From assembly GCA_038065315.1 (NCBI GenBank), contig JBBTRF010000002.1, forward strand, positions 12,021-76,020: a DNA stretch of 64,000 bases. Direction: 5' to 3'. Position numbers and translations under genes: made by a program. The notes under the pieces are model-generated. The model was not told the DNA's origin, did not search any database, and worked only from the letters and a program-made list of their open reading frames with translations. The first letter of the stretch is position 1. Every line of letters begins with the position of its first letter. This stretch comes from Patescibacteria group bacterium (GTDB lineage Bacteria > Patescibacteriota > Minisyncoccia > Phycocordibacterales > JBBTRF01). This document shows positions 8,191-59,054 of the stretch, piece by piece.

Positions 8191-8202
8191 AAGAATGTAA
8201 AA

Positions 8203-10922: not shown

Positions 10923-10923
10923 T

Positions 10924-12222: not shown

Positions 12223-12232
12223 TTTTTCTATC

Positions 12233-15558: not shown

Positions 15559-15582
15559 CGGAATAGCACAGGATACATTCAC

Positions 15583-17004
15583 ATGAAACTCACGCTAAAG
15601 AATTTTTTCAAAACATATCGCTGGGAGACCATCATTTTTGGTGTCGCTCTCGCGTTACGTCTCGTGCTATTTTTTGTGAACTTACAACACAATCAATACG
15701 CCTTGATCCCGACGATCCACGCCGACGATGGTTGGTATGAATTGAGTCAAAGTGCTTTGCGACAACACGGATTTCTTGGGGAAGTGGACCCGCCTTTCCG
15801 TGCCAACCCGCTACGACCACCGCTGTGGCCGTACCTCATCGCGCTCTTCGCCTTCGTATTCCAGAGTTACTGGGCAGTGGTTTTCATTGAGTTGATCGCC
15901 AGTGCTTGTATCCCGGTGTTCGGCTACCGACTCTGTCGGCAGGTCTTTTTGGGCAGTTTTTTGGCTGACGCCGATCGTGTCGCGAAATGGGTAAGCGTAG
16001 CGATGGTCGTTTCGCCATACCCCGTACTTCTTTCGTTTCTTTTGTATTCGGAAACGTGCTTCACTTTCTTCCTTCTTCTCGGACTTATTTTCTTGTTCCG
16101 ATTTTTCAAGGAGCAGAGTTGGCGTATGCTCGTCTGGTCGGCAGTGTTCCTCGGCTTGGCGACCTTGGTGAAGCCGACCATTCAGTATGTGCCGATCCTC
16201 GTGCCGCTTTTCATGCTCTGGTATTTTTGGCAGACGATGACGAAAAAGATAATTTGGCAGATGCTCGCCTTCGTCCTTGTCTTCATGGCAATCTTGATGC
16301 CATGGCTGGTACGAAACCGGGTTGAATTCGGCGTTTGGGGGATGAGTGCTCAGCCGGCATTCAACCTCGCGGTGTATCTGGCCCCGACTGTTCTGTCGAT
16401 CGACAACCGCACGAATTTTCAGACTGAGCTCGATGCTATTAGAAAGCGACCAGGGTTTGATGAAAACGGTATCACTTTGGTGACCAGCAAAACGTACGCC
16501 TCTGAAGCTCTTGCGACCATCTTCCAACATAAAACCGCCCTTGTACAATCTGTGGCGAACACGACCATCACCTTTTTCACCCACGACGGCATGCTCACTA
16601 TTTTGCAATATTCTGGAATTGTCGTGCCCAACATTCTCACCAAGCCTGCCTTGTGGCTGCTACTGCATGAGCCGCTGACCTTGCTGAAGGCAATCAGCCA
16701 CTACGCATTCTCTCCGGCGATCCTCATTCTCATCTTCCGCATTCTTTGGATAGTGATCACGGTATTCTTTCTCCGGGGCGCATATTCCGCGCTTGCACAA
16801 AAAGACAAAAACGGGAACCGCTCAGTCGCAGACAAAAAGCTCCTCGTACTTGCACTTTGTATCGTCCTGTACTTCATGGCCACCACCTCGATCAACGGAC
16901 TCGGCGTGAATGCCCGTTTTCGCGTACCGGTGGAGGTGTTCATCTTCATGTTCTCGTTCTATGGACTTTTTGAGGCAAGGCGTACTATACTGTCGAAACT
17001 ATGA
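15583..17004 (+). CDS. GT-C fold membrane glycosyltransferase (ArnT/PMT, GT39/GT83-like)
   Basis: 473 aa, about 11-13 TM helices, DDGWY-like extracytoplasmic loop motif near N-terminus. Confidence 0.55.
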   Translation: MKLTLKNFFKTYRWETIIFGVALALRLVLFFVNLQHNQYALIPTIHADDGWYELSQSALRQHGFLGEVDPPFRANPLRPPLWPYLIALFAFVFQSYWAVVFIELIASACIPVFGYRLCRQVFLGSFLADADRVAKWVSVAMVVSPYPVLLSFLLYSETCFTFFLLLGLIFLFRFFKEQSWRMLVWSAVFLGLATLVKPTIQYVPILVPLFMLWYFWQTMTKKIIWQMLAFVLVFMAILMPWLVRNRVEFGVWGMSAQPAFNLAVYLAPTVLSIDNRTNFQTELDAIRKRPGFDENGITLVTSKTYASEALATIFQHKTALVQSVANTTITFFTHDGMLTILQYSGIVVPNILTKPALWLLLHEPLTLLKAISHYAFSPAILILIFRILWIVITVFFLRGAYSALAQKDKNGNRSVADKKLLVLALCIVLYFMATTSINGLGVNARFRVPVEVFIFMFSFYGLFEARRTILSKL

Positions 17005-18668
17005 AATTGTCGATCATCATCCCGTGCTTCAATGAGAAGGCCACGATTCGTGAGATTCTGAAGCGAGTACAGAGTGTGCCGCTCGTGGGCTGGGAGAAGG
17101 AGGTCATTGTCGTCGACGATGCTTCGACCGACGGAACTGTCGATATTTTGAAGGATCTGTTGGCTAAAAAGGGCGAAACGCAGCCTGGTCTGAAGGTCTG
17201 TTTCCAATCAAAGAATGGCGGGAAAGGCAGTGCGGTGAAGCGCGGCATCGCCGAAGCGACCGGCGACTACCTGCTCATCCAAGATGCTGATCTCGAATAC
17301 AATCCGGCTGAGATTCCGAGCTTGCTCAAACTCATTGGCACCAAACTGCCTGATGGACGGATCGTGGATACAGTGTATGGGTCGCGTAACCTTTTTCACG
17401 TAGCACGCAAAGGCTTTTTGATCCCCCGCGCTGGTGTGTGGCTGATCACTAAATTAGTTGACCTCATGTACGGACAAAAGCTCACCGATGTCTGGACGTG
17501 CTACAAGCTCTTTCCAAAAGCGGCGGGGAAGTATTTTGTGGCCGGCGGCTTTGAATCGGAAATTGTCTTCACACTCGCAGCGATTCGCAAAGGATACGTG
17601 ATCGCCGAAGGGCCGATTTCCCACGCACCACGCGATGTGGAGCACGGCAAGAAGATCCGCTACCGAGATGGGGTTCACGCGATCATTGCCATTTTTTCTG
17701 ACCGACTGCTGCATCTCAGAAAGCCGGCTCATGAGAATGTGAAAAATATGGAGACGTACCAGGCGGCTCTGCGTGCACCGCACACATTGCAATCCCTTGC
17801 TTCGGAGGTTCTTGCGGCTACGGCTATTCAGGGTGAGCAAAAAGGTTTGCGCGCTGTCGACGGTACGTTTTTTCGTATCGATGAAGCCGGTCGGCCGCAT
17901 TTGATCGAGAAGGCAGTCTTTGAATTGAACGAAGACGAGCATGTCTCCGGGATCAACTGGCTGAAATCGTTTCTGAAACAGTTTCCGAAATTGTACTACG
18001 CTGTGTGGCAGGTGGTGTGTCCAGTGATGATGCTGAAAAATGGACCGTCCATCCTCTGGAAACATGTTGAGAAGATGAATGGTGGGAAGCCGTTGGTGAT
18101 CGATGTTGGATCCGGTCCGGAGCGTCTCGGCAAGGATCTGGTGAATCTCGACGTCTTTCCATTTCCTGAAGTGGATATTGTGTCTGACGCGACAGCTCTG
18201 CCTTTTGCGACTGGTTCTGTGGATGGGGCAGTGAGTGAGTCAGTGTTCGAACATGTGCCACGAGCTGATTTGGTGGCGAAAGAGATGGTGCGCGTGCTCA
18301 AGCCGGGCGGCTATTTCTATGTGAGTGCGCCGTTTATCCACCCATATCATGCTTCGCCGGACGACTTCAATCGCTGGACGGTGAGCGGTCTGAAATTCCT
18401 CTTTACCGATCCCGAGCGTATGGCTGGCATGGAGGTGGAGATTGTGGAAACCGGCGTGCGATCCGGCCCATGGAGCGCCCTTCTGCTGTTTTTGGCATAT
18501 TGGCTTGGAGTCCTATTCTCCTTCGGCTACAAGCCAATTGCACCACTTTTAGCCCATATCTTCATGATCCCGCTCGGTCTCCTGAAATATCTCGACTACT
18601 TCTTCATGGTGTGGCCAGGCGCCGATGCAGTGGCGACTCATTTGTATGTGATCGGGCGGAAGCGCTAG
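17001..18668 (+). CDS. bifunctional glycosyltransferase family 2 (DPM1-like) / SAM-dependent methyltransferase fusion
   Basis: N-term MKLSIIIPCFNE...VIVVDDASTDGT...LIQDADLEY (GT2); C-term VIDVGSGPER...VLKPGGYFYVSAPF (Methyltransf_11). Confidence 0.75.
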   Translation: MKLSIIIPCFNEKATIREILKRVQSVPLVGWEKEVIVVDDASTDGTVDILKDLLAKKGETQPGLKVCFQSKNGGKGSAVKRGIAEATGDYLLIQDADLEYNPAEIPSLLKLIGTKLPDGRIVDTVYGSRNLFHVARKGFLIPRAGVWLITKLVDLMYGQKLTDVWTCYKLFPKAAGKYFVAGGFESEIVFTLAAIRKGYVIAEGPISHAPRDVEHGKKIRYRDGVHAIIAIFSDRLLHLRKPAHENVKNMETYQAALRAPHTLQSLASEVLAATAIQGEQKGLRAVDGTFFRIDEAGRPHLIEKAVFELNEDEHVSGINWLKSFLKQFPKLYYAVWQVVCPVMMLKNGPSILWKHVEKMNGGKPLVIDVGSGPERLGKDLVNLDVFPFPEVDIVSDATALPFATGSVDGAVSESVFEHVPRADLVAKEMVRVLKPGGYFYVSAPFIHPYHASPDDFNRWTVSGLKFLFTDPERMAGMEVEIVETGVRSGPWSALLLFLAYWLGVLFSFGYKPIAPLLAHIFMIPLGLLKYLDYFFMVWPGADAVATHLYVIGRKR

Positions 18669-19588
18669 TAGTGGACCCAGGTGCAATATTTGTTGGGGAA
18701 GAAAGTGTTTTTTCCGGCATAGTATCCCCAATCGACTGGTTCGTTGGTCATCACGATGTGCGGAATGTTGCCGTAGTATGCCGCAAAGTCTCCGAAGGTG
18801 CTGTTGGAGCCAATCACGACATCGGCCTGGGCGAGCATGAAAAGATCCTCGACTGGTCCGTTTTTTGAGACGACAATGTTGAGACCGGCGAATACTGATT
18901 CATCGATCGGGCCGTCGGAGGCGATGACGAAACAGCTGTCTTTCGCGGCAGTACCGGCGTGCTGTAGGTATTCATTCAAGATTTCCCGTACTCGTTTCTG
19001 CTCGATGAAGTATGCGCCGTTCCGCCAAGTGCGATAGTCGCCTTGGCGGACATGTACCCCGACAATATTCTGATATCTTTGTCTGATTGGTGTCAGAAGA
19101 TCGTTCGCCGTTTTTTGGATTGAGGGCTTTGGCGCAAAATACGCTCGAATCTCATTTCGATATTTTTCCAAACCGACTGGGTTGCGGAAGAGCCAGCCGT
19201 CGAGGTATGAGCAATGTCCCGGCAAGGCCTCTTTCGATGTGGTCGGTGCAAGATAGAAGGGGATGTTGTCTGGATGCTCGTATGAAAAGATACGTTGCTT
19301 TTTGGTTAGAAACATTACGCGAGCATACCAAGAGTACGCTTTGCGCCAAAGTCGGCGACGGAAGGCGGTCTTGCGGCCGCGGTAGTCTTCAAAAGGGAGA
19401 AAAAAAGCCACTTTAAAAAGCCAATTGGGCGCCGCAGACATTTCAAAGCTACTGCCATATTCAAAAAAAGATGGGTTTTTGAGGTCGAGTCCGCGCTCCA
19501 GGCAGTATGCGTAGATGCTGGCGTAATTCCAGAGCTGGTTGGCGAGCTCGTTGCCGCCGGCCCCTATAATTGAGATTTTTTTAGACAT
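18665..19588 (-). CDS. glycosyltransferase family 11 (alpha-1,2-fucosyltransferase-like)
   Basis: HVRQGDY GT11 motif I; likely start MSKKISIIGAG at 19588 (ORF extends to 19885 with non-homologous N-extension); stop overlaps convergent GT2-MT stop (CTAG). Confidence 0.55.
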   Translation of the reverse strand: MSKKISIIGAGGNELANQLWNYASIYAYCLERGLDLKNPSFFEYGSSFEMSAAPNWLFKVAFFLPFEDYRGRKTAFRRRLWRKAYSWYARVMFLTKKQRIFSYEHPDNIPFYLAPTTSKEALPGHCSYLDGWLFRNPVGLEKYRNEIRAYFAPKPSIQKTANDLLTPIRQRYQNIVGVHVRQGDYRTWRNGAYFIEQKRVREILNEYLQHAGTAAKDSCFVIASDGPIDESVFAGLNIVVSKNGPVEDLFMLAQADVVIGSNSTFGDFAAYYGNIPHIVMTNEPVDWGYYAGKNTFFPNKYCTWVHY

Positions 19589-20372
19589 GTTTCGGACTCT
19601 TTTTGAAATGATAGAGACCGGTGCCAAAACCACGGGCTCGGTCGTACGTCTCATACATAGAGTCGCCGTAAATATATTTTTCTTCGACGACGACAAGGCC
19701 GGCAGCGAGTTCGAGCAGGTATTCGCGAGTGAAGGCCCGATGTGCGTTGAAATACACCTTGCTTTCACTGTCCACTGGCACGGTAAGGTACAGTGAGCCG
19801 CCTGGAGCGAGTACGCGAACCAGTTCTTTGAGTGCTTTTTCTGAACCGAGGGTATCGAGGGGATCTCCGTAGCGGCCGAGGCCAATATGTTCGATCACGC
19901 AAATAGAGCTGAGCGATGCAATCTCGCCGTCTTTGAAGGGGAGCTCAAGAATACTTCCTTTGACAAAAAAGAGTCCCGAAAGGGAAAGGGGAATTGGTCT
20001 AATGTCTACCATTGTTGTCGGCGTGAATTGTGAGATGATGCCGACCATGCTTGCTTGAGAACCAATGTCGTAGTGGTGGGACGGTTTCTGCTCAAAGATT
20101 TTTTTCGCACACCAGCAGCCTTGGAAAAAGTACACCGGGTCGAGGTGGTGGTTTGTCGTATTGTCGTAGATGCGAGGGTAGATGTCTTCGGTTTTCTGAA
20201 TGAACCGAGGGTTGATCGGGAGTTTTTGGAATGCTCGATACTCAGAAAGAAAACGGGACAATAATCTGAGTTTTGTGGCAAAAGAATACTTATTTTTTAG
20301 CGCGCGCAGGCAAACTACAGTCACCTTAAGCGGCGCCACTTTCTTGAGCGATTGTCGGAGGTTAAATGACAT
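19581..20372 (-). CDS. methyltransferase-fold protein (DUF268-like class I MTase)
   Basis: 263 aa; ICVIEHIGLGRYGDPLD and LAPGGSLYLTVP motifs; overlaps downstream gene by 8 nt. Confidence 0.4.
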   Translation of the reverse strand: MSFNLRQSLKKVAPLKVTVVCLRALKNKYSFATKLRLLSRFLSEYRAFQKLPINPRFIQKTEDIYPRIYDNTTNHHLDPVYFFQGCWCAKKIFEQKPSHHYDIGSQASMVGIISQFTPTTMVDIRPIPLSLSGLFFVKGSILELPFKDGEIASLSSICVIEHIGLGRYGDPLDTLGSEKALKELVRVLAPGGSLYLTVPVDSESKVYFNAHRAFTREYLLELAAGLVVVEEKYIYGDSMYETYDRARGFGTGLYHFKKSPKHV

Positions 20373-21264
20373 ACGAAGAGGCTTTTCTTTCTACAGGCTT
20401 TCCCTGTTCATCCAGTGCAATATAGTACAGATTCCGTTTTGGGAAAAGGGTGCGGTAGGTGAAAGAAAAGATTGGAGTGAAAAGTGGCGAGGATAATTTT
20501 GATCTCAACCAAAAGAACATCTTTACTTTTTTGTTGAGTGGGCCGGACTCTCGAGAAAGTGTTGCTTGTTCTTCTCTGTATTGTTTCATGTTGGTACTGA
20601 GTTGTCCGACGGAAGATCTGAATGAGCTTACTTCAGCATCGAGTGACCAAAGGGGGGTGACTTTTGCAAACTGTAGCCATAGAGAGTAGTCTCCAGCAAG
20701 CTTTAATGCAGGATCAATACCCCCAGCCTTATTCCACAACTCCTTACGCCAAAAGACGCTGTCTTGGTGGATGAAGTATGCGTTGCGGCCGTAGAACCCG
20801 CGAGCAATCCACTCTTGGTTGTATAGATAGCATCGTCCTCGTTCGGTAATGGCAGAGCGTTCGTCGATAAAAGACGTGATGCCTTTCAGCCAGAGAATGT
20901 CTGGGCGCGCAGAGAAGACAGCAGCGATTTTTTGGAAGGCGCCGGCGGCGTAGATGTCGTCGGCATTGATGTACGCGTAGACATCGCCGCCGGCGCGTGC
21001 GAACCCTTTGTTCACCGCATCATACATCCCAGCGTCTTTTTCCGATGCCCATTGCATCGTCACTTTTTTGCAGCGCGCCGGCACCAGACCCTCATCGACT
21101 TTTCGTTGCCATTCTTCCAGCAACGCGATAGTGCCGTCAGTGGATCCACCATCTTGCACGATATATTCGATTTCGAAATCTCCCGCTTGCGAAAGCACGC
21201 TCTCTATCGTTTCGGAGAGGAAGCGCTGACCGTTGTAGACGGGGGTGACGATGCTAAATTTCAT
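20362..21264 (-). CDS. glycosyltransferase family 2
   Basis: MKFSIVTPVYNGQRFL...IVQDGGSTDGT...YINADD motifs; start at 21264 (ORF opens at 21336). Confidence 0.75.
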   Translation of the reverse strand: MKFSIVTPVYNGQRFLSETIESVLSQAGDFEIEYIVQDGGSTDGTIALLEEWQRKVDEGLVPARCKKVTMQWASEKDAGMYDAVNKGFARAGGDVYAYINADDIYAAGAFQKIAAVFSARPDILWLKGITSFIDERSAITERGRCYLYNQEWIARGFYGRNAYFIHQDSVFWRKELWNKAGGIDPALKLAGDYSLWLQFAKVTPLWSLDAEVSSFRSSVGQLSTNMKQYREEQATLSRESGPLNKKVKMFFWLRSKLSSPLFTPIFSFTYRTLFPKRNLYYIALDEQGKPVERKASSYVI

Positions 21265-22079
21265 TTCTTCATCAGTCCGAGTGCGCGGAGGGCGCGCTTG
21301 ATGTAATACTTGGTGTAGCCGACGACGCGCGCCCAAGTCATCGGCGGCTTGTGCGTCTGCTGTGAGTCACTGAGAATCGTCCACGGCTTCTTCAGGATCG
21401 GCAATTTCCACTCGTCATTTTCTCGCGAGTAGCGATGCACGAACAATTTCTGTGTCGGATTTTCATACGGAAGGCAGTCGATGAGGAACATGAAAGACGA
21501 GTCAATCACGTGGATCTCTTTGGCTTTTTCGAACATCAGACAGTAGTCGATGATGTTTTCCGTAAATTGACGCTGCGGGCTGAACACTTCGAGGCCGGCG
21601 CCAATCTTGTCACGCTTGATAAGATATTGTCGAGGCAGGTCTTCGTGGATGAAGGCATAGTCGCCCTTCGGTGCCACTTTGTCGAACAACGCCTTTTCAC
21701 GTACAGGATCGCGCTCAATATGGAAGCTGTCCCATTTTTTCTCGAGCGGCACGCCGGCGAGGGAGTAGAATTGCTTTTCGAGCTGGCGACCGCCCCATTC
21801 GTCGAGGAATTCGAAACCAATCAGCCTCACTTCGTCGTAGTGGTCGGGACCGCTACCGTTGCCACTCTCGCTGGCGATGTATTGTCGAGCAAAGGCATCG
21901 TTACCCTGGATGATATTGAGGTTCTTGAGGTCACGATACATGAAGGCGACAGAAGGGTAGTTGTGGGGGTAGCAAAACAGCGCTACTTTGTCGTATTTTT
22001 GGCAATATTCACGCACGATGCCGTGACACATGAAGTGGTCTCCGAGCCCAAGATGGTGATACAAAATGACGCTAGACAT
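21261..22079 (-). CDS. hypothetical protein, possible glycosyltransferase-like (first gene of minus-strand sub-operon)
   Basis: 272 aa, ATGA overlap with GT2; no recognised family (LGLGDHFMC N-terminal motif). Confidence 0.4.
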   Translation of the reverse strand: MSSVILYHHLGLGDHFMCHGIVREYCQKYDKVALFCYPHNYPSVAFMYRDLKNLNIIQGNDAFARQYIASESGNGSGPDHYDEVRLIGFEFLDEWGGRQLEKQFYSLAGVPLEKKWDSFHIERDPVREKALFDKVAPKGDYAFIHEDLPRQYLIKRDKIGAGLEVFSPQRQFTENIIDYCLMFEKAKEIHVIDSSFMFLIDCLPYENPTQKLFVHRYSRENDEWKLPILKKPWTILSDSQQTHKPPMTWARVVGYTKYYIKRALRALGLMKK

Positions 22080-22151
22080 AGGGTGTTTGTTACGATAATA
22101 TGGCTCTATATCGGTCAGTATACCATATCTATTTTATCCTCATTAATTCCA

Positions 22152-23216
22152 ATGAAAGACGTCAAAAAAGCGATGAAAGCGGCCATACTCGAGACGATTG
22201 ACGCGCCGCTCGCTATCGGAAATGTCGAACTCACTGACCTCACTTCCGGCCAGGTATTGGTGAAGGTGCTGGTGAGTGGTATTTGCGGGGCGCAGCTGCA
22301 GGAAATCGCGGGGAATAAAGGCAATGCGAAATTCGTCCCGCATTTGTTGGGCCACGAAGGCTGCGGTATTGTCGAGGCACTTGGCCCAGATGTGACGCAT
22401 GTGAAGGTGGGCGACAAGGTGGTGATGCATTGGATGAAGGGTGACGGGATCGAAGCCGATTTTCCGACCTATATTTTGAATGGCAAAAAGATTCGCAGCG
22501 GCAAGGTGACCACTTTCAGTGAGTACTCGATTGTGTCGGAAAATCGGCTTACTGCTGTACCGCACGAGACGCCGAATGACCTCTGTGCGCTGCTGGGCTG
22601 CGGACTGTCGACTGCACTTGGTGTGATGGAGAACGAAGCGCAGGTGAAGCCGGGTGAGAGTGTGATGATTGTGGGCGCCGGCGGCTTGGGTCTCAATCTT
22701 TTGAACGCGGCGGTAATCGCCGGCGCCAAGCCCATCATTCTCGTCGACGTTCACGAAAGCAAGCGCAAGATGGCGGAGTCTCTCGGTGCACACCTATTCA
22801 TCAATTCAAAGGAGAAAGGTATCAAGGAAGAATTGACCGAAAAACTGAATCTGAAAGACGTGGATGTGATCGTCGACACTTCCGGCAACAAGCACGCAGT
22901 CGAAGCGACCCTTCCGCTGCTCGGCGGAAACGGTCGCTATATTTTCGTCGGTCAGCCGAAACCGGGCGAAACCATTGAGCTCAAAAATGCACACCACATG
23001 TTCGACGGAAAAGGGAAGACTATCAAGGCGACTCAGGGTGGAAAATTCAATCCGACAAAAGACATCCCGCGTTATTTGCAAATGCACAAGACCGGCGCAT
23101 TGAAAATCCACCATATCATTACGCATCGCATCAGCCTCGACAAGGTCAATGAAGCGATCGACATGGTGCGAGCGGGCCAGGCTGGACGAATTATTATTGA
23201 TATTTGTCCAAACTAA
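22152..23216 (+). CDS. zinc-dependent medium-chain alcohol dehydrogenase/reductase
   Basis: GHEGCGIVEALG zinc motif, GAGGLGLN Rossmann motif; start MKDVKK at 22152 (long ORF from 21435 is antisense read-through). Confidence 0.75.
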   Translation: MKDVKKAMKAAILETIDAPLAIGNVELTDLTSGQVLVKVLVSGICGAQLQEIAGNKGNAKFVPHLLGHEGCGIVEALGPDVTHVKVGDKVVMHWMKGDGIEADFPTYILNGKKIRSGKVTTFSEYSIVSENRLTAVPHETPNDLCALLGCGLSTALGVMENEAQVKPGESVMIVGAGGLGLNLLNAAVIAGAKPIILVDVHESKRKMAESLGAHLFINSKEKGIKEELTEKLNLKDVDVIVDTSGNKHAVEATLPLLGGNGRYIFVGQPKPGETIELKNAHHMFDGKGKTIKATQGGKFNPTKDIPRYLQMHKTGALKIHHIITHRISLDKVNEAIDMVRAGQAGRIIIDICPN

Positions 23217-23242
23217 CCCGCGTGACGCACACGAACACTAAA

Positions 23243-24205
23243 ATGTCTACATCCCTCCTCGACGCTTACAAAAAAATGCAGTTGATCCGCATCACTGAGC
23301 AAGAGATCGCGAACTTTTATTTGGCCAACAAGGTGATGAGCTTCGTGCATTTCTATGTCGGACAGGAAGCGGTCGCAACAGGCGTCTGCGCGGCGCTGGC
23401 GAGTGGCGACAAAGTGATGGGTAACCATCGTTCACACGGCCACTATTTGGCGAAGGGCGGCGACTTGAAACGCATGGTCTGCGAGTTGCTCGGCAAGGCG
23501 CACGGCTCGTCGAAAGGGAAGGGCGGTTCGATGCACATGATCGACAAGTCGGTGAACTTTGTCGGCTCCACCCCGATTCTCGGTAGCGTGGTACCACTCG
23601 CGTGCGGTGCGGCTTTTGAACAAAAATATAACAAGAAAAACGACCTCACCGTGTCGTTTGTCGGCGACGGTGCTTCCGAAGAGGGTGTGGTATACGAGAC
23701 GATCAATCTCGCCGCGCTTTTTAAACTCCCATATCTCATTGTGGTAGAGAATAATCTCTATTCGGTCAACTCGAAAATAAAAGACCGGCGCTCTGAAGGC
23801 TACAATGTCGAAAAGATCGTCACCGGCCTCGGCGCGCAGTATATGAAGGCTGACGGTAACGATCTCGAAGATGTGCTCGCAAAGGCAACCGCCGCCGTCG
23901 CGAAGATCCGCGCTGGCGGCGGACCAATGGTGCTCGAGTGCATCACTTATCGTCACATGGCCCACAGCGCGCCGCTCTTTGATGACGCTCAAGGTTATCG
24001 CGAAGAAGATCCGCTCGAAAAGCGCCTCGAGCGCGACCCAATCAAGCGCTTGAAGCAAACCTTGCTCACTGCGGGTACTTCCGAGGAGCAACTCGCCAAG
24101 ATCGAAAAGGAGACTCGAGATACCGTGCTCGCTGCAATCGCCTTCGCGAAGGATGCGCCATTTCCGGCGAAGGAGACTTTATATACTGACGTTTACGCGA
24201 AATAA
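23243..24205 (+). CDS. TPP-dependent dehydrogenase E1 component alpha subunit (PDH/acetoin-DH E1 alpha-like)
   Basis: YVGQEAVATGV, GNHRSHGHYLAKGGD, GKGGSMHM TPP-binding motifs. Confidence 0.75.
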   Translation: MSTSLLDAYKKMQLIRITEQEIANFYLANKVMSFVHFYVGQEAVATGVCAALASGDKVMGNHRSHGHYLAKGGDLKRMVCELLGKAHGSSKGKGGSMHMIDKSVNFVGSTPILGSVVPLACGAAFEQKYNKKNDLTVSFVGDGASEEGVVYETINLAALFKLPYLIVVENNLYSVNSKIKDRRSEGYNVEKIVTGLGAQYMKADGNDLEDVLAKATAAVAKIRAGGGPMVLECITYRHMAHSAPLFDDAQGYREEDPLEKRLERDPIKRLKQTLLTAGTSEEQLAKIEKETRDTVLAAIAFAKDAPFPAKETLYTDVYAK

Positions 24206-24208
24206 CTT

Positions 24209-25282
24209 TTGAATACTTGTATGCCCGAACGAATCATCAAATGCAACGACGCGATCAGGGAGGCCACCGACCAGATGATGGCCGCTGACCCAAGTGTGTT
24301 CGTGATCGGTCTCGGTGTCTCATACAAGAATGGCGCGGACGGGACCACTGCAGGGTTGAAAGCAAAGTATCCGGACCGCATCTTCGATGTTCCGGTCTCC
24401 GAAGCGGGATTCACTGGTATGGCAGTGGGTGCGGCGATCAGCGGCTTGCGCCCCGTCATTCATCATGGTCGCATCGAATTTGCACTGCTCGCCTCCGACT
24501 CGATCTTCACCCAAGCCGCAAAGTGGAACTATATGTTTGGCGGCGACAATCCGGTGCCGGCGGTCTTCCGCATTGCCATCGGCCGCGCCTGGGGCAATGG
24601 TCCGCAGCACACGCTCTCGACGTATTCTATGTTCGGCAATGTTCCCGGCTTGAAAGTGGTCATTCCATCGACGCCATACATGGCGAAGGGTCTACTGGTC
24701 TCTGCTTTGCGCGATCGCAGCCCGGTCGTCTTTCTCGAAACCCGCTATTCATACGGCATGAAGCAGCATGTGCCCGAAGAGCTATACGCCGAACCGCTCG
24801 ACAAGGCGAAAGTGTTTCGAACAGGGAAGAGTGTCACGGTCGTCGCGTATGGTGACGGTTTTGTTGGCGCGCTACAAGCCTGCGAATTGCTCAATGCGAG
24901 CGGCAACGGCACAGACGTTGCAGATATCGACCTGATCGATCTCGTGAGCATCAATCCTGTCGACCACGAGACCATCACTCGTTCGGTGCAGAAGACCGGA
25001 CATTTGTTGTGCATCGATACGACGATCGATTCATTTAGTGTTGGCTCGGAGATCATCGCAAAGGTGGCGCAGAACGGCGCGATCAGACTGAAAAAGGCGC
25101 CGGTCTCGCTCGCGTGTCCGAATGTTGCCTGTCCAACCTCGACTGCACTCACTGAAGGCTACTATCCGACCAAAGTGGACATCGCGAACGCTATTTTAGC
25201 CCTGCAAGGGAAGCCAGCGATCAAGTACGATCTTTCTTTTGACGATTTTCATACTCACGCCGCATTTGTGATCCAGGGTTAG
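24209..25282 (+). CDS. TPP-dependent dehydrogenase E1 component beta subunit (transketolase-like)
   Basis: 357 aa; transketolase pyrimidine-binding and C-terminal domains; follows alpha subunit after 3 nt. Confidence 0.75.
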   Translation: MNTCMPERIIKCNDAIREATDQMMAADPSVFVIGLGVSYKNGADGTTAGLKAKYPDRIFDVPVSEAGFTGMAVGAAISGLRPVIHHGRIEFALLASDSIFTQAAKWNYMFGGDNPVPAVFRIAIGRAWGNGPQHTLSTYSMFGNVPGLKVVIPSTPYMAKGLLVSALRDRSPVVFLETRYSYGMKQHVPEELYAEPLDKAKVFRTGKSVTVVAYGDGFVGALQACELLNASGNGTDVADIDLIDLVSINPVDHETITRSVQKTGHLLCIDTTIDSFSVGSEIIAKVAQNGAIRLKKAPVSLACPNVACPTSTALTEGYYPTKVDIANAILALQGKPAIKYDLSFDDFHTHAAFVIQG

Positions 25283-25343
25283 ATTGACGGAAAAGCTTCG
25301 AAAATAACGTCAAAAAGCCTTATAATTGGCCGCAAAATAGACA

Positions 25344-25372
25344 TTGACAGTAGCATTAAAATATGCTACAAT
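25344..25372 (+). promoter_or_regulatory. consensus sigma70 promoter (TTGACA-17-TACAAT) for EEP gene
   Basis: TTGACA 25344-25349, 17-nt spacer, TACAAT 25367-25372; AGGAGG RBS at 25474-25479, GTG start 25485. Confidence 0.55.
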
Positions 25373-25484
25373 TGAGACCGGTCAGGAAATGCCCTGTTTG
25401 GCATGTTCCGAATTTGAAAAAACAGCAGAAAACGCAATAAACCAGGCCCTAAACAGGCCGCAAACCTCTTGAAAGGAGGCCGCA

Positions 25485-26270
25485 GTGCAACGTCAACAGT
25501 TCAAGCTCATCACGCTCAACGTTGGTCGCGGACTTTCCGGCATCGACCGGATCATTACCTTCCTACGGGAGCAGCAGGCCGACGTGCTTTGCTTGCAAGA
25601 CATCAGCGCCGACCATATCGCCTCGTTCCCCGGAGTGTTCGGTCCGTCGATGCACTTCGTGCCGATGTGCCGCCACCACTTCAGGGGACTGGGCCATGTT
25701 CCGGTCGGCGTCGGCATTTTCTCCCGGTTTCCGCTCGCCAGCACCTCGGCGCATGCTTACGTCGGCAACATTCAGCCGGTCTTGGACATCGACGGCGTCA
25801 CCTACGGCGAAAATGGCGCTGCCGCTCCGACGGATCTGGATCTGGTCCGCAAGACCGAATCCCGCGTCGCCGTGTTCGCCAACGTCCAGTTACCCGACAA
25901 CGTTCAAGTCCGGGTTGGCACTACGCACGGGGTTTGGACTCCGGGCGGAAAAGCGGACGAGCATCAACGCAAGGCTACGCGCCTGCTGCGCAACTGCATG
26001 AATGAGCAACTGATTGACGGTGGCCTGATAGCCGGCGATTTCAACGCTGCCACTGGCGGCGAGATCTACGGCATTATTGCCGGCTCGGAGCACTATCAGA
26101 GCGTTATGCCGGGCAGCATCACCAACACCGTTGACTGGGAAGTTCGCGGCAAGAAAGGCCCGGAACTTGTCGTGGATCACGTCTTCGCCGCGCATGTCGC
26201 CGTTCCGGAAGTGGCTGCACACTTCGGTGTGAGTGATCATGCCGCGCTCTCGGCCATTGTCCGGGTGTAG
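25485..26270 (+). CDS. endonuclease/exonuclease/phosphatase (EEP) family protein
   Basis: 261 aa; EEP-like motifs LCLQD, GTTH, SDHAAL; GTG start with strong SD; markedly GC-richer than neighbours. Confidence 0.6.
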   Translation: MQRQQFKLITLNVGRGLSGIDRIITFLREQQADVLCLQDISADHIASFPGVFGPSMHFVPMCRHHFRGLGHVPVGVGIFSRFPLASTSAHAYVGNIQPVLDIDGVTYGENGAAAPTDLDLVRKTESRVAVFANVQLPDNVQVRVGTTHGVWTPGGKADEHQRKATRLLRNCMNEQLIDGGLIAGDFNAATGGEIYGIIAGSEHYQSVMPGSITNTVDWEVRGKKGPELVVDHVFAAHVAVPEVAAHFGVSDHAALSAIVRV

Positions 26271-26354
26271 CGGATTACTCGAAATAACAAGTGATACTTC
26301 GCAACTTCCTCGCGCCATCCGTGGCCGAGGGAGTTTTTTCTTGTAGACATTTTG

Positions 26355-28361
26355 CTACTTCCGCCACAGATACAGAGCAATCGGGAAGCAGTAACTATTT
26401 TTGAATGTTTCGGCGACTTGGAAATTAAAATCGCGATCAGCGCCGCGGCCCATGAAAGATGGCCAGACCCGGTTTTTGAGCTTTCTGAATTGGACCTTTT
26501 CTATCACTTCGCGCTTGAACATTGGACTGTTGCCCGCGCCTGGGTAGGGCGCCAGGTTGCCAAAGAAGAGCTTGTTCAGTACGCGGAGACGTTTGTAGTG
26601 AAAATGAATCGCGCTATTTACATACGTCGAGACTTTTGCAACCAACCCTTTTGCTTTCTGTGACAACGTGTAAATCTCTTTAGGTCCAAGGATTTTTCCG
26701 TCAATTTTGTATTCCGCTTTCGTCCCCAGGAGCTCTTCTCTGAACGGGACACACTCAGTAGTGATGTGCATCGCGCCATGCTTGGTGAGCAGATCGTGTT
26801 GAACCTCCAGTCGGTTCAATAGGGAGGCATCATCGCCGTCCTGGAAGGTGATGAGTTCGCCACGAGCCTTGGTGAAGCCAAAGTTTCGCGCAGCATAGCC
26901 TGCGTTGGTGTTGCGTTTCAGTATCGGATCGATGCGCTCGGTGTCGTTGCCGGGTAGTGAGTAATAAGCGACTCGCGGATCTTCTTTCGCGACGTCCTCG
27001 ACAATCTTTTTGGTGTTGTCGGCGCTGTTGTCGTCCACAACGATGACTTCAAGATGTGTGTATGTTTGTTGGAGGATTGAATCAATCGCTGTTTTGATCG
27101 TCTCGGCGTTGTTGTGTGCAGGGATGATGACAGAGATGAGCGGATTTGTTGCGGGGCGTAGTATGTCGTCGATAAAATGTCCGTAAGCGGAAGAAAAATG
27201 CTCTTTCGTATGGTGTTCCCGAGCATACATCCAGGTGTTGTGAGCCAATGTGCTGAGCTGCTCCGGTGCAGTCTGTGCGATTTTTTTCGCCTGTGCGCGG
27301 ATCGATTCAATGGTCGGCTCCTCCAAAATGATTGCCGGGGCTTTCTCAGCAAGACCTGTTTGTCTGGTGACAATCGGGAAGACTCCAGCATGCATTGCCT
27401 GTATCACGGCACCGGAAGTACCCTCAGAGGCTGAAGGGTAAATGAGGGTTGCGCATTTATTAGCGATGGCAATGAATGTCGTGTCGCCGACGGTCATTGT
27501 GCCAGCCTTGTCCATCTTTGGTCGTGGATAGCAAGTGATATTCGGTAAGGCGAGTTCGGTTGCATAGACTGCTTGGAACGTTGTTTCAGCGGCGGTGGGG
27601 CCGATGATATGTAAATGCAGTTCCGGCATGGTGGAGAAAGCTTCTATTACCAAATCGAGTCCCTTTAGGATAGCCCCACCGCCGCTGAAGAAGAGAAAGT
27701 GCTTTCGCGCTTCGGCAAAATCTTTTCCGCCCGCCTCGCCAATCTCGGAAGCTTCAAATGTCTGTGCGACGGATATAGGAATGTGGCGAATCGGTTTATT
27801 GAATCGAGCAAATGTTGCGTAAACAGTGTCGTTGCCGAAGCCTTCAAGGAAGTCTGCATAAGCAGGATTTTCAGCACCGGTCTCGACGCGCCGAGCTGGC
27901 AGAATGATACCGCGTCGCTGTTTGAGTTCGGCGAGACGCTTCGCTTCAGCGGCGTTTTGAAAACCGCTCTCCGACGAAGTGATGTGCATTACTTTTTTGC
28001 ATGAAGCAGGAAGGAGGGAGGTGCCTGCGAGGCCGGCAGTACACCATCGCTCCAGATTTTGCCGCACATCGACGACGGCATCATATTGTTTGCGCGGAAC
28101 AAAAGACGTATTTGAGGCATTGATCACGTCGACATCATATCCTCGAACTGAAAACAGCCGAGCAATTTCAGAGCATTCCCAATAGTTGGTGTGTGGGTCG
28201 GTGAATCGCTGCCAAGGGAGAAGGGTGAAGGGGCCGGTGAGATATGAGAGGAGAACTCGACCTTTTTTTGTCGACTGGCCACCTGTCTTTTCGCGTGTCG
28301 CCGGCACATGCACTACTCCATGTAGCTTGTTTGAGACTTTGTTTTTGAGAGTGCCGATCAT
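26355..28361 (-). CDS. bifunctional glycosyltransferase (N-terminal GT-B/GT4-like domain + C-terminal GT2 domain)
   Basis: N-half GTSGAVIQAMHAGVFPIVT; C-half LISVIIPAHNNAETI...VIVVDDNSADNT...FQDGDD; start MIGTLK at 28361 (ORF opens 28556 with R/S-rich junk). Confidence 0.65.
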   Translation of the reverse strand: MIGTLKNKVSNKLHGVVHVPATREKTGGQSTKKGRVLLSYLTGPFTLLPWQRFTDPHTNYWECSEIARLFSVRGYDVDVINASNTSFVPRKQYDAVVDVRQNLERWCTAGLAGTSLLPASCKKVMHITSSESGFQNAAEAKRLAELKQRRGIILPARRVETGAENPAYADFLEGFGNDTVYATFARFNKPIRHIPISVAQTFEASEIGEAGGKDFAEARKHFLFFSGGGAILKGLDLVIEAFSTMPELHLHIIGPTAAETTFQAVYATELALPNITCYPRPKMDKAGTMTVGDTTFIAIANKCATLIYPSASEGTSGAVIQAMHAGVFPIVTRQTGLAEKAPAIILEEPTIESIRAQAKKIAQTAPEQLSTLAHNTWMYAREHHTKEHFSSAYGHFIDDILRPATNPLISVIIPAHNNAETIKTAIDSILQQTYTHLEVIVVDDNSADNTKKIVEDVAKEDPRVAYYSLPGNDTERIDPILKRNTNAGYAARNFGFTKARGELITFQDGDDASLLNRLEVQHDLLTKHGAMHITTECVPFREELLGTKAEYKIDGKILGPKEIYTLSQKAKGLVAKVSTYVNSAIHFHYKRLRVLNKLFFGNLAPYPGAGNSPMFKREVIEKVQFRKLKNRVWPSFMGRGADRDFNFQVAETFKNSYCFPIALYLWRK

Positions 28362-28365
28362 GCGA

Positions 28366-29133
28366 TTACTTCGCCGCCTTCTTGATGAACAGCGCGAGGT
28401 CGAGCGTATCCGCCTGCTCAGTTTTTGTGATCGTGAATGGTCCTTCGAATGGTCCGTTGACGCAATTCCACTCCACTTCGCCGTGCTTTCGGGTGATCGC
28501 ATCCAATTCAGCAAATGTCCACTCGCGCAAATGCCAATAATTCTTCGGCGTGCCATCGGCCTTGGTGTACTCTGGTCGCTTGTTCGGTGTAGTCAAGAAG
28601 ACGCCGCGCTTCGAGACACGCAACACTTCGTCGAGGAAGCGATGGTAGTCCTCCACGTGCTCCAACACTTCCACACAGGTGATCATGTCAAAATAATTGT
28701 CAGGATAGTCGAGTTTATAGCCATCGTACAAAGAGAGTTTTTTCAACTTTGGATGCTTGCCGGCAAGTACGCGTTGGCAATAGTCGTAGGCTTTCTTATC
28801 GACATCGGCGCCATACACCTCAGTCGCTTTGTTCCCCAAAAGCACCAGTCCATAGCCGGTGCCAAATCCGACATCGAGCACACGGTCGCCCTCCTTCACA
28901 TAATTATTGAGGGCACGAAAATACACCTCGATCTGGCACGGTGGAATGATTCCTTCGATTCCCGAGACAGCCGAGTATTCCTTCGGATCGGTCTTTTTCG
29001 ACGTGTTAAAAACCAGGCCAACCGAACTCGCCGTTTTCACCGGCATGATCCGGAATCCGAGCGTGCTGTCTAGACAATTATTGACTGCTTTTAGGGTTTT
29101 TTTGATCATATAAATAGGAGCCAATTTTATCAC
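28366..29133 (-). CDS. class I SAM-dependent methyltransferase
   Basis: VLDVGFGTGYG motif I, ITCVEVLEHV, SKRGVFLTTPN. Confidence 0.7.
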   Translation of the reverse strand: MIKLAPIYMIKKTLKAVNNCLDSTLGFRIMPVKTASSVGLVFNTSKKTDPKEYSAVSGIEGIIPPCQIEVYFRALNNYVKEGDRVLDVGFGTGYGLVLLGNKATEVYGADVDKKAYDYCQRVLAGKHPKLKKLSLYDGYKLDYPDNYFDMITCVEVLEHVEDYHRFLDEVLRVSKRGVFLTTPNKRPEYTKADGTPKNYWHLREWTFAELDAITRKHGEVEWNCVNGPFEGPFTITKTEQADTLDLALFIKKAAK

Positions 29134-30140
29134 GCCTTTTTTCGGGTCACAAGGCGGTAGAGTTTTTTCAGTAATTCGCTCTTCACCGCGATCGCGATGA
29201 CTGTTTTCTTCAGGCTAAATGGCTCTGGACGAAAACTCCGTTCGTAAAAGGCTCGGTCGTATTCCATCCCGGCCGCTACCGCGCCTTCGGCAGTTGCCGG
29301 ATGAACGATAGCTCCATCCGCGTAGAGATCATGTGTCGCTAGGTGCTGGTTGCTGCCGCCCGAATGCGTCCCTTCTGAGCCGATATTGGATACCAGATTT
29401 TTGCGAGGGATGATACAAAAGCCGCCACTCCTCAGACAGGCATACAGCCACTGCACGTCCCAGGTGTTTGTCTTTCCGGATACGATGTCGTCAAAGAGAC
29501 GTTCCATATGATTTCTCATATATTTCTGATCTTCCGGATATAGCTCGTTCAGCATCTTTATGTCTCCCGAGTCGCTCTTGTTTCTTGTTGCTCTTTCCCA
29601 ATCCTTCATCTGCACATCATACTGCTGCCATGCTCGGCGCCATGTCGCCCAGCCCCAGATCGGAAAGTATTTTGAAAATGCGTAGTCGGTCTCGATGTGC
29701 ACATCTGGCAGAAAATTGTCGCCAGAGATCATCATCACTCGCTCATCCGATCGATACCGCTTGAGCATCTCTCCTGCGAAACGAAAGAAAGACGGGTGGG
29801 GTAGACAGTCGTCTTCGAGGATAATCCCTTCTTCGACGTGTTCAAAAAACCAATTCAATCCCGAGGAGATACGCTCTTTCAGGCCAAGGTTTTTTTCGGC
29901 GTAATTGCGACGGACTTCGCATGGCCAGTCAATCTCCGTATCTGCAACGATCGCTCTTGTTTCTTCGCAGAGGGCTGACTCGGCCGGGGTGCGTGGACCA
30001 TCTGCAATAATGAAGAGCTGTCGAGGCTTTGCCTGGCGGATTTGCTCGAATACCTTGCGAGTGTATTCCGGGCGATTGAAGATGAGAAAGGCAATCGGCA
30101 AGGTCGATAGGTTTGGCGTGTTGATATTAGTCTGCGACAT
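29130..30140 (-). CDS. GT-A-fold nucleotide-diphospho-sugar transferase-like protein (HlpA-like)
   Basis: FIIADGP...ILEDDCL...WGWATW pattern; start MSQTNI at 30140 avoids 83-nt overlap with asnB. Confidence 0.35.
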   Translation of the reverse strand: MSQTNINTPNLSTLPIAFLIFNRPEYTRKVFEQIRQAKPRQLFIIADGPRTPAESALCEETRAIVADTEIDWPCEVRRNYAEKNLGLKERISSGLNWFFEHVEEGIILEDDCLPHPSFFRFAGEMLKRYRSDERVMMISGDNFLPDVHIETDYAFSKYFPIWGWATWRRAWQQYDVQMKDWERATRNKSDSGDIKMLNELYPEDQKYMRNHMERLFDDIVSGKTNTWDVQWLYACLRSGGFCIIPRKNLVSNIGSEGTHSGGSNQHLATHDLYADGAIVHPATAEGAVAAGMEYDRAFYERSFRPEPFSLKKTVIAIAVKSELLKKLYRLVTRKKA

Positions 30141-31953
30141 GGTATTTTTTGTGAGACTGTAGCCAGATTTCCAGGCAGTACAGTACCCAGATCTTGTAAT
30201 GATATTCATCTTTACCCTCGACGTAGAATCGGTGAAGCAATGCCTCGACCGCTTCTTTGTTCATCATTGAAAAGATCTCCGCCTTTGGGTCGGATAGCGT
30301 CTTCTCCACTTCGGTTTTAAATGCGCCTTCTCTTAGCCATTTCTTCACCGGTGCACCAAAGCCTTGCTTGCGACGATGAACGAATTCCTGCGGCATCACC
30401 TCGCCGAGCAGGTCCTTGAGGATGCGTTTGTATGTCGATCCATCGGTTTTGTATTCATCGGGTAGGTTGTACACGAATTCCGCCAGCTTGTGGTCGAGGA
30501 AGGGCGAGCGCACTTCGAGTGAGTTCATCATGCCGGCTCGGTCGGCTTTCACCAAAAGGAGGCCAGGGAGGTAGGTGGTGAGGTCGAAGAGGTTGATCTT
30601 TCGGGCGGATGAGAGGGTCGAATGCGCGACTTGTGTATTGATGATACCGCCACCTTCATTGCTGCTGCCAGGTTGTTTCTTCCACAGTCGTCTTTTTTCA
30701 GATGAACTGAATACGCTGATTGCTCGTATGTATCCAGCAAATGGGCTCAGAAATACTTTCTCAATAAAATTCTTTCGGTACGACAGATGCTTGTGTCGAG
30801 TGTACCAACCATAGCCCAGGAAGAGTTCGTCTGCGCCGTCACCAGAAAGTGCCACCTTCACTTTCTCAGCGGTAGAGCGGGAGAGAAGAAACTGAGGGAA
30901 GTCCGATGAGTCGGCGTGTGGTTCGTCAAAATATGCGAGGGCACTACGGAGCTCGCCAACAGCGTCATCTTTGGCTTGTAGGGGGTAATGTTCGGTACCG
31001 ATCTTCTGAGAAGCCTCGAGGGCGAAGGGGAGTTCGTTGATATAGTTTTGGTACCCGATTGAAAAAGTCTTGATTGGGGTCTTGGAAAAAGATTGTGCGA
31101 GGTGGGTGACCAGCGTGGAGTCTACGCCGCCAGAGAGGAAGGAACCGATCTCTACGTCGGCGATCATGCGCTTGCGCACTGCATCGGTGAGTAGTCTTCG
31201 GACGCCCTCCTTTGCCTCAGCGTATGTCAGTGTTTTTGTGTCGGTTCCGTTCGGTACGGTTTTTTCAAGTTTCCAGTACTGAGAAATCACCAAACGATCT
31301 TCAGTGTTTGTATTCTGAAAATCCAAAGTTGCACAAGACGCCGGTGGTAAGGTGTAAATATTTTTGTAGGTAGTTTTCCATGGCGGGATGTACATCAAGG
31401 TGAGATAGTCGTCGATGGCGGCTGGATTGAGTACGCCCTTTATTTTCCCCGATGCGAAGATTGCCTTGATTTCTGAGGCGAATATCAACGCACCGTTTTG
31501 GTCGTACGCATAATATAATGGCTTTTTCCCAAATCGATCTCGTGCCAAAAAAAGCTGCTGCTTTTCATCATCCCAAATAGCGAAAGCAAACATGCCGTCG
31601 AGATGTTTCGGACACTCAGCCCCGTATTCTTGGTAGGCTTTCAAAATCACCTCGGTGTCTGAATTGGTCGAGAAAGTATGACCTTTTTTTTGAAGCACAC
31701 TGCGCAGCTCGCGATAATTATAGATCTCGCCGTTGAAAGTTACGGTGAGGTTATTTGCGTTGTCCCGCATCGGCTGATGTCCGCCAGAAAGATCGATGAT
31801 CGAGAGTCGTGTTTGCGCTAGGACACATCGGTTGTATCGCGCGATCCCCTTGTCGTCTGGACCTCTCTTGGCTAGTGTGTCGAGCATCGAGCCGAGCATT
31901 CGGTCGTCGTATGTCTCAATGTTTGCGCCGGTAATGCCCAGGATTCCGCACAT
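30127..31953 (-). CDS. asnB: asparagine synthetase (glutamine-hydrolysing), WbpS-type amidotransferase
   Basis: MCGILGI N-terminal nucleophile Cys2, SGGVDST PP-loop. Confidence 0.85.
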   Translation of the reverse strand: MCGILGITGANIETYDDRMLGSMLDTLAKRGPDDKGIARYNRCVLAQTRLSIIDLSGGHQPMRDNANNLTVTFNGEIYNYRELRSVLQKKGHTFSTNSDTEVILKAYQEYGAECPKHLDGMFAFAIWDDEKQQLFLARDRFGKKPLYYAYDQNGALIFASEIKAIFASGKIKGVLNPAAIDDYLTLMYIPPWKTTYKNIYTLPPASCATLDFQNTNTEDRLVISQYWKLEKTVPNGTDTKTLTYAEAKEGVRRLLTDAVRKRMIADVEIGSFLSGGVDSTLVTHLAQSFSKTPIKTFSIGYQNYINELPFALEASQKIGTEHYPLQAKDDAVGELRSALAYFDEPHADSSDFPQFLLSRSTAEKVKVALSGDGADELFLGYGWYTRHKHLSYRKNFIEKVFLSPFAGYIRAISVFSSSEKRRLWKKQPGSSNEGGGIINTQVAHSTLSSARKINLFDLTTYLPGLLLVKADRAGMMNSLEVRSPFLDHKLAEFVYNLPDEYKTDGSTYKRILKDLLGEVMPQEFVHRRKQGFGAPVKKWLREGAFKTEVEKTLSDPKAEIFSMMNKEAVEALLHRFYVEGKDEYHYKIWVLYCLEIWLQSHKKYHVAD

Positions 31954-31977
31954 AATAATAGTTGATTAAATAAAAAA

Positions 31978-33240: not shown

Positions 33241-33256
33241 GTGTTTTGGATGGCGA

Positions 33257-34093: not shown

Positions 34094-34123
34094 GGTGAAG
34101 AGATGGGACTGAATTCTAGAATA

Positions 34124-34444: not shown

Positions 34445-34543
34445 AATGTGTCATGTGGATAATCGTCGGCGGGGTCGGCGCCGCCTATCGGTGCGTGATG
34501 GTTCCCAAAAGGGTGGCACCTTCGGCTTCAGTGCGGTATAGTT

Positions 34544-59049: not shown

Positions 59050-59054
59050 ACACC

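Follow-up and report, generated by a model that had tools for sequence, protein, structure and literature searches.

A lipoyl-acyltransferase-less E1-type thiamine enzyme and a zinc alcohol dehydrogenase as a probable glycan-biosynthetic module in Patescibacteria

Three adjacent genes in a 64-kb stretch (the whole stretch is called the window here) of contig JBBTRF010000002.1, part of a metagenome-assembled Patescibacteria genome, encode a zinc-dependent alcohol dehydrogenase (ADH) and two proteins related to the α and β subunits of the E1 component of pyruvate dehydrogenase (PDH). We consider it likely that this trio constitutes a glycan-biosynthetic thiamine enzyme, independent of the lipoyl acyltransferase E2, together with a dedicated redox partner, and that it does not belong to a pyruvate or acetoin dehydrogenase; this reading is well supported because the genomic context is conserved across related loci. 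The more specific proposal, that two-carbon (C2) transfer and NAD-linked redox chemistry make a heptose-pathway-linked sugar which is installed by a glycosyltransferase of GT9 fold, is in our estimate slightly favoured, since it rests on relatives of the locus and on one fold match. The trio and its divergently transcribed neighbour are:

22152..23216, + strand: Zn-dependent medium-chain ADH, 354 aa (Pfam ADH_N and ADH_zinc_N); ATG at 22173 is a possible start
23243..24205, + strand: E1 alpha-type thiamine diphosphate (ThDP) subunit, 320 aa (Pfam E1_dh, 232.6 bits); alternative TTG start at 23204
24221..25282, + strand: E1 beta-type subunit, 353 aa (Pfam Transket_pyr and Transketolase_C); alternative TTG start at 24209
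21261..22079, − strand: compact glycosyltransferase with a predicted GT9 (heptosyltransferase) fold, 272 aa (structure prediction)

Only 26 nt separate the ADH and E1 alpha genes, and 15 nt the E1 alpha and E1 beta genes. Open reading frames (ORFs) and Pfam matches thus bear out the first-pass annotation of this DNA, which had placed an ADH, an E1 alpha and an E1 beta gene within a glycosyltransferase/methyltransferase cluster, and the arrangement is not a chance one, because the three genes occur together again in 28 of 34 related loci (described below). Scored against curated family models, the window E1 alpha reaches 316.3 bits with NCBIfam PDH_E1_alph_y (cut-off 393.85) and the E1 beta 243.9 bits with the corresponding NCBIfam PDH E1 beta subfamily model (cut-off 321). 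There are weak Pfam cross-matches to the transketolase and 1-deoxyxylulose-5-phosphate (DXP) synthase fold class. The E1 alpha is identical to P0001, a protein named Patescibacteria E1 alpha, and the locus with its layout recurs in repeated public assemblies from Hainich groundwater, the longest such contig spanning 781 kb. We rejected the idea of a compositional island, as the GC content of the trio region (0.52–0.55) is like that of the window. Public gene calls give the ADH as a 593-aa protein starting at 21435, running across the opposite-strand gene, and leave the 272-aa gene at 21261–22079 uncalled.

The thiamine-binding and catalytic residues of both E1 subunits are intact. Aligned to human PDH E1 alpha, the window protein retains the GDG...NN motif for Mg and ThDP and two catalytic histidines; the E1 beta, aligned to its human counterpart, retains the cofactor-activating Glu and the catalytic His. 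Given these residues, the pair is expected to be a decarboxylating ThDP enzyme. In the ADH, the catalytic Cys, His-Glu and Cys are conserved throughout the clade of related loci and a GxGxxG Rossmann NAD site is present; an Asp at the position that governs NAD preference is likewise conserved, and the enzyme is probably NAD(H)-specific. The structural-zinc site is gone, all four Cys being missing from the window protein and from all 30 aligned clade members, and at the Ser/Thr position of the proton relay most members carry Ala, while some carry Ser or Thr. Class III ADHs are the closest solved relatives (146 bits), and the best-matching models are those of class III and NDMA-type ADHs, not of the threonine or butanediol dehydrogenase type.

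To place the trio among its relatives, we scanned a genome collection, taking one genome per species, and found 80 loci. Thirty collection loci and four from metagenome contigs make up the clade of 34 loci to which the window belongs: E1 alpha identity to the window is 58–92% across the 30 collection members and at most 45% in all other loci. The clade is almost entirely from Patescibacteria, of several candidate lineages, with a few contigs binned as Gammaproteobacteria, Hydrogenedentota, Chthoniobacteraceae or Nanoarchaeota. The trio is adjacent in 28 of the 34 loci, with an ADH gene (52–93% identity) directly preceding E1 alpha, and E1 beta was found in 32; the trio genes of relatives overlap by 4–11 nt. 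In one relative, L005, the order is short-chain dehydrogenase/reductase (SDR), ADH, E1 alpha, E1 beta, PfkB kinase, and an SDR gene stands upstream in four relatives. Sequence conservation across Patescibacteria lineages is unusually high (E1 alpha 58–92%, ADH up to 93%, a short kinase introduced below up to 83%), and this conservation, together with the few copies on contigs binned to other phyla, points to lateral spread of the module.

Importantly, no lipoyl E2 gene was found within 10 kb of the E1 pair in any of the 34 clade loci, and about 30 of them lie amid glycosyltransferase, methyltransferase, flippase or Wzm/Wzt genes. The window follows this pattern; Pfam scans delimit the cluster around the trio as:

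9696..36802 (~27 kb, not stranded): ABC-transporter-dependent glycan cluster

The cluster comprises several GT4 and GT2 glycosyltransferases, a PMT_2 protein, a GT11-like transferase and at least five methyltransferases including a DUF268 protein, along with a GT2-methyltransferase fusion, a GT4/GT2 fusion, an AsnB-like amidotransferase, a Wzt with a Wzt_C domain, Wzm and a Wzy_C/TPR protein. The statement of the first-pass annotation that E2 and the dihydrolipoamide dehydrogenase E3 are missing holds for the 64-kb window: tblastn gave no match for a lipoyl E2, and Pfam scans of the other large ORFs gave neither E2 nor E3. The same is true of its statement that no 4,6-dehydratase is present, as about 30 SDR epimerase/dehydratase queries (tblastn) had no match in the window. 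Nor did tblastn of the window return a PfkB kinase, a cytidylyl- or adenylyltransferase, GmhA, DegT, a GT9 enzyme, an aldo-keto reductase (AKR) or a Bac_transf protein. The link to heptose therefore comes from relatives and from the fold of one neighbour.

That neighbour is the 272-aa protein, whose gene is divergent from the ADH gene across a 72-bp gap and heads a minus-strand run of GT2, DUF268 methyltransferase and GT11-like genes. It has no NCBIfam or Pfam match, and its fold was identified by structure prediction only, which models it as a GT9-fold, heptosyltransferase-like transferase. The gene is real, as judged from 488 homologues and a confident model. Some homologues are fused to a GmhB-like HAD domain. 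Such miniature GT9-fold transferases measure 235–270 aa and are without a Pfam match.

Among the relatives, at least one of an HldA-like kinase, an HldC-like nucleotidyltransferase or GmhA is encoded within 10 kb in 21 of the 34 loci. The most regular partner is a short PfkB kinase of 246–254 aa, which follows E1 beta in 16 loci (58–83% identity to the kinase of L011, the tblastn query), and whose start often overlaps the E1 beta stop codon, an arrangement indicative of translational coupling. Of the NCBIfam models it matches the heptose-7-phosphate kinase domain best, with a score far under the cut-off. Four other clade loci carry a full-length HldA-like kinase, 14 of the 34 have HldC-like genes, and four have classical GT9 genes; the HldC and GmhA copies of L010 pass their curated cut-offs. 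In L034 a single strand encodes an HldC-GmhB fusion, an HldA-like kinase, GmhA, a flavin oxidoreductase, ADH, E1 alpha and E1 beta, which looks like a single operon. Two locus types can be told apart: one combines the trio with GmhA, a long kinase, HldC and a classical GT9, the other with a mini GT9-fold protein and the short kinase. The window holds the mini-GT9 gene and the trio, and in its 92%-identical relative L011 the short kinase sits between mini-GT9 and ADH. Taken together, the GT9-fold transferase and the HldA-like, HldC-like and GmhA partners suggest a sugar of the heptose class. A survey of freshwater bacteria of the candidate phyla radiation (CPR) reports ADP-heptose biosynthesis in Paceibacteria (PMC9166423); in the literature on a link between E1 enzymes and heptose in CPR bacteria we found no description of this module. 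A phosphonate or polyol-phosphate (TarJ/TarI-like) reading was also considered and rejected, as the relatives' nucleotidyltransferases best match the heptose-1-phosphate adenylyltransferase model and no phosphoenolpyruvate mutase or IspD-type enzyme was seen.

From these data we infer the C2-transfer chemistry, its donor and acceptor and the order of steps as follows. The E1 enzyme, of α2β2 type and free of E2, would decarboxylate a 2-oxo acid (pyruvate, possibly hydroxypyruvate) on ThDP and pass the two-carbon unit to the carbonyl of a sugar intermediate in an acyloin-type ligation. The NAD-linked Zn-ADH would provide the paired redox step in one of two ways: by turning the new keto group into a hydroxyethyl or diol group through reduction, or by generating the acceptor carbonyl through oxidation of a sugar hydroxyl. 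The product would be a sugar of an ADP-heptose-type pathway, activated by the HldA-like kinase and HldC-like nucleotidyltransferase that stand beside the trio in relatives and not in the window, and the adjoining GT9-fold transferase would place it into a surface glycan exported by Wzm/Wzt. The translational coupling of the kinase to E1 beta hints that the E1 pair acts before nucleotide activation, unlike the avilamycin, paulomycin and YerE-type systems discussed next.

The nearest parallels are the AviB1/AviB2 pair of avilamycin and Pau11/Pau12 with Pau7 of paulomycin biosynthesis in Streptomyces, in which, judged by gene layout and published descriptions, an E2-less E1-like pair (~320 + 350 aa) likewise lies in a sugar cluster, there beside a ketoreductase (PMC4425429, PMC4753412). 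Both pairs are proposed to load a C2 unit from pyruvate on a keto-sugar. For Pau11/Pau12 this is a 4-keto sugar, the loading is said to proceed 'through an unknown mechanism', and the 7′-keto group is then reduced by Pau7 (PMC4425429, PMC4753412). These are actinomycete antibiotic deoxysugar pathways, with an AKR as reductase and a scaffold-attached 4-keto deoxysugar as acceptor; the trio, in contrast, belongs to a Patescibacteria surface glycan, is partnered by a Zn-ADH of the medium-chain dehydrogenase/reductase type and has heptose-type neighbour genes. What the window shares with them is the E2-less pair in a glycan cluster. No SDR dehydratase or epimerase that would supply a 4-keto sugar was found in the window, and the adjoining, co-conserved Zn-ADH, which may act as ketoreductase on an acetyl branch, is not an AKR like Pau7. 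YerE/YerF and ErwE/ErwF offer a second parallel, in that ThDP-dependent carbon-carbon branching followed by NAD(P)H reduction is established there for acyl-branched sugars of lipopolysaccharide (PMC9306805). However, the YerE-type enzymes are single-chain, acetolactate-synthase-like proteins acting on CDP-4-keto-3,6-dideoxyglucose, and they differ in fold family and partner genes. Transketolase and DXP synthase share the fold class, depend on ThDP and attach a C2 unit to the aldehyde of a sugar; they differ in subunit organization and sequence family, and the analogy is mechanistic only. On the heptose side, relatives carry GmhA, HldC-like and HldA-like genes of the ADP-heptose pathway (GmhA, HldA/HldE, GmhB, HldC) beside the trio, and the divergent neighbour in the window shares the GT9 fold of the heptosyltransferases WaaC, WaaF and TibC. 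Yet the canonical pathway involves neither a thiamine enzyme nor a Zn-ADH; compared with it, the relatives' kinase is usually shortened (~250 aa) and the transferase compact (235–270 aa), and the window, while encoding the GT9 fold, has no GmhA, HldA-type or HldC-type gene. The trio fits best as a variant among the systems in which an E1-type enzyme is held to transfer a C2 unit to sugars.

Several observations weigh against a heptose-linked sugar made by C2 transfer. Neither a kinase, a nucleotidyltransferase or GmhA nor a dehydratase or a phosphatase of known type is encoded in the window, and only 8 of the 34 clade loci have a GmhA gene within 10 kb. The ADH is nearer to ethanol-active and class III ADHs than to polyol or sugar dehydrogenases, and the resemblance to the Streptomyces systems is one of layout. 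Finally, a subclade formed by L032, L036 and L037 (59% E1 alpha identity) has aminotransferase and ATP-grasp genes and no ADH, so that the E1 pair is not bound to a single pathway; in this subclade it may well make a different, possibly non-glycan product, as the gene content suggests. Downstream of its E1 pair, the L032 group (9959–17111 in L032) encodes a long aminotransferase and two ATP-grasp ligases, as well as a NUDIX hydrolase and a D-2-hydroxyacid dehydrogenase.

One alternative would have the E1 pair build the sugar skeleton itself. Acting like transketolase or DXP synthase, it would take a C2 unit from hydroxypyruvate or pyruvate and add it to an aldose, free or phosphorylated, which would yield a heptulose, a heptose or a deoxy variant; the ADH would adjust the new carbonyl, and the short kinase and HldC-like enzyme would activate the free sugar, bypassing sedoheptulose-7-phosphate and GmhA. 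We regard this as unlikely, though the kinase speaks for it: in the 16 loci with the shortened, HldA-like kinase (246–254 aa) its gene directly follows E1 beta with overlapping codons, and GmhA is not within 10 kb in 12 of these 16. A D-2-hydroxyacid dehydrogenase that could supply a 2-oxo acid donor is also encoded in the vicinity in L020 and in the L032 group. Against this, L010, L024, L025 and L034 keep the trio alongside the full GmhA/HldA/HldC set, and the trio is therefore not simply a replacement for the GmhA route. GmhA could also sit elsewhere in the genomes of the short-kinase loci, and we know of no other E1-type enzyme with such a role.

The first-pass annotation had proposed a two-carbon branched sugar. 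In a specific version of this idea, the E1 pair would add a pyruvate-derived acetyl branch at C4 of a nucleoside diphosphate (NDP)-linked 4-keto-6-deoxy or 4-keto-pentose sugar, or of such a sugar already in the chain, in line with the proposals for AviB1/AviB2 and Pau11/Pau12, and the ADH would reduce it to hydroxyethyl in the role of YerF or Pau7. The core of this idea survives: an E1 pair with intact residues, dedicated to glycan clusters (~30 of 34 loci) and without E2, has E2-less counterparts in outgroups, and a two-carbon, glycan-linked transfer is plausible. Its acceptor finds no support here, and the sugar is probably of another class than the one proposed; as formulated, the proposal seems quite improbable. 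In its favour are the Avi/Pau layout of an E2-less E1 pair with a reductase in a sugar cluster (PMC4425429, PMC4753412), outgroup clusters that unite an E1 pair with an AKR, a PglF-type 4,6-dehydratase and a DegT aminotransferase, and SDR epimerase/dehydratase genes, of unassigned specificity, within 10 kb in 16 of the 34 clade loci. The window, however, gave no tblastn match for such a dehydratase or epimerase to furnish an NDP-4-keto-6-deoxyhexose, the conserved partner genes are of the heptose and not the deoxyhexose type, and the coupling of the kinase to E1 beta suggests action prior to nucleotide activation.

A fermentative role strikes us as very unlikely. Acetaldehyde and acetoin can arise from E1 enzymes in side reactions, and the pair might yield acetaldehyde, or make or cleave acetoin, with the ADH regenerating NAD+ by forming ethanol or 2,3-butanediol; the ADH is indeed closest to ethanol-active and class III enzymes and looks NAD-specific, and CPR surveys list ADHs but no pyruvate decarboxylase (PMC9166423). 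Yet no fermentation genes adjoin the trio, which lies within glycan clusters in most clade loci; an HldA-like kinase is coupled to it, a GT9-fold transferase stands opposite, and the proton-relay Ser/Thr of the ADH is Ala in most members. Moreover, an acetoin dehydrogenase/butanediol cycle (AcoABCL with butanediol dehydrogenase) would include AcoC and AcoL, neither of which is in the window, and the ADH is not of the butanediol dehydrogenase type.

It is scarcely credible that the pair is the E1 of an ordinary pyruvate or acetoin dehydrogenase, with genes for E2 and E3 elsewhere in the genome: the homology to PdhA/PdhB and AcoA/AcoB is clear, and the pair retains the ThDP/Mg motif as well as the histidines that serve reductive acylation, but both subunits fall under the curated PDH cut-offs, sit in a glycan context in a separate clade, and lack local E2/E3 partners both in the window and, for E2, within 10 kb in all 34 clade loci, whereas E2 adjoins E1 in Dehalococcoidia relatives; to our knowledge, Patescibacteria generally are without such complexes.

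Related E1 pairs outside the clade help to interpret the trio. By gene content and a neighbour-joining tree with gene-context labels, which is indicative only because it was midpoint-rooted and its sequences were pre-selected by two motifs, the outgroup E1 sequences at 38–45% identity fall into three gene contexts. The first, in Dehalococcoidia, is the classical arrangement of E1 alpha and E1 beta followed directly by a lipoyl E2. The second, found in Planctomycetes, Omnitrophota, Desulfobacterota-type bacteria, Bacteroidales and Geomonas, consists of a PglC-type sugar transferase, sometimes an AKR, an E2-less E1 alpha/beta pair, DegT, a class I/II aminotransferase, a methyltransferase and a PglF-type dehydratase:

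~8–17 kb in each of L043, L047, L056, L057, L062, L076 and L087: outgroup loci of this second context

The third context, in Omnitrophota, Nitrospina and Magnetococcales, joins a GmhA-like gene, an HldE-like fusion and SDR enzymes to E1 alpha/beta. Thus the nearest non-CPR relatives of the trio E1 include E2-less pairs in glycan clusters, some with an adjoining AKR, and pairs of this kind are widespread. The combination of AKR and E1 pair parallels Pau7/Pau11/Pau12 of paulomycin, though here in surface-glycan clusters. The Omnitrophota operon of L042 (5173–18363) encodes a GmhA-like protein, an HldE-like fusion with the nucleotidyltransferase before the kinase, SDRs, a methyltransferase and E1 alpha/beta, as well as a B12-radical SAM enzyme, a YerE-like ThDP enzyme, a NUDIX hydrolase and a Zn-ADH; two distinct types of thiamine carboligase are therefore present in one sugar operon.

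Returning to the heptose-linked sugar favoured here, we can go one step further only tentatively. In Patescibacteria and a few uncultivated lineages, the orphan E1, Zn-ADH, short HldA-like kinase, HldC-like enzyme and miniature GT9-fold transferase might jointly make a higher-carbon sugar new to description, either a C2-extended or branched heptose (nonose-class) or a heptose formed by ThDP-dependent ligation of a C5 and a C2 unit without sedoheptulose-7-phosphate. If so, this sugar could be a signature residue of the ABC-exported glycan, possibly a terminal cap read by the C-terminal domain of Wzt. In other bacteria the Wzt_C domain binds the modified chain terminus. The window Wzt (31978–33240) bears this C-terminal domain, and the many methyltransferases of the cluster fit a capped glycan.

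CPR bacteria, as far as we know, live attached to other cells, and their cell-surface chemistry is almost unknown. A module that is conserved and, as it appears, laterally widespread would mark a specific, testable sugar modification in Patescibacteria glycans. It would also extend E1-type C2 transfer to sugars beyond a few Streptomyces antibiotic clusters, whose mechanism is still called unknown, and the similar E1 pairs in surface-glycan clusters of many phyla are small soluble targets on which the chemistry could be studied. In metabolic reconstructions, such genes should not be scored as 'pyruvate dehydrogenase' or 'alcohol fermentation'.

Downstream of the trio lies a loosely associated accessory gene:

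25485..26270, + strand: EEP-family phosphoesterase, 261 aa (Pfam Exo_endo_phos)

This gene recurs beside the trio in 7–9 related loci. Its structural model (pLDDT 93) matches generic folds, namely TDP2, nocturnin, sphingomyelinase and one Bacteroides mannosyl-6-phosphatase, and we did not retain it as a specific sugar phosphatase, because these matches do not discriminate. A scan for promoters and terminators, which reports consensus matches only, revealed a sigma-70-like, near-consensus site at 25344–25372 (TTGACA, 17 nt, TACAAT, with an upstream TG) in the 200-bp gap before the gene, which may therefore be transcribed separately from the trio. Further downstream (26355–30209 and 30127–31953), genes for the AsnB-like amidotransferase, the GT4/GT2 fusion, a methyltransferase and a 359-aa protein with no NCBIfam or Pfam match accompany the trio in L009, L011 and L035 as well. 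The same glycan may contain an amidated sugar, as the co-travelling AsnB-like gene would suggest.

Elsewhere in the window, a polyprenyl-phosphate sugar-phosphate transferase of the WecA/MraY type (Glycos_transf_4; 979–2148) lies ~8 kb outside the cluster and is a candidate for the initiating step. The region just upstream of the cluster (6220–9681) encodes a TraG/VirD4/HerA-like ATPase of 656 aa and a secreted-type protein of 492 aa with lamin-tail and PKD domains. Six consecutive + strand ORFs (170–491 aa) without a Pfam match occupy 57827–62904, and a Fic-domain protein is encoded at 55124–56215.

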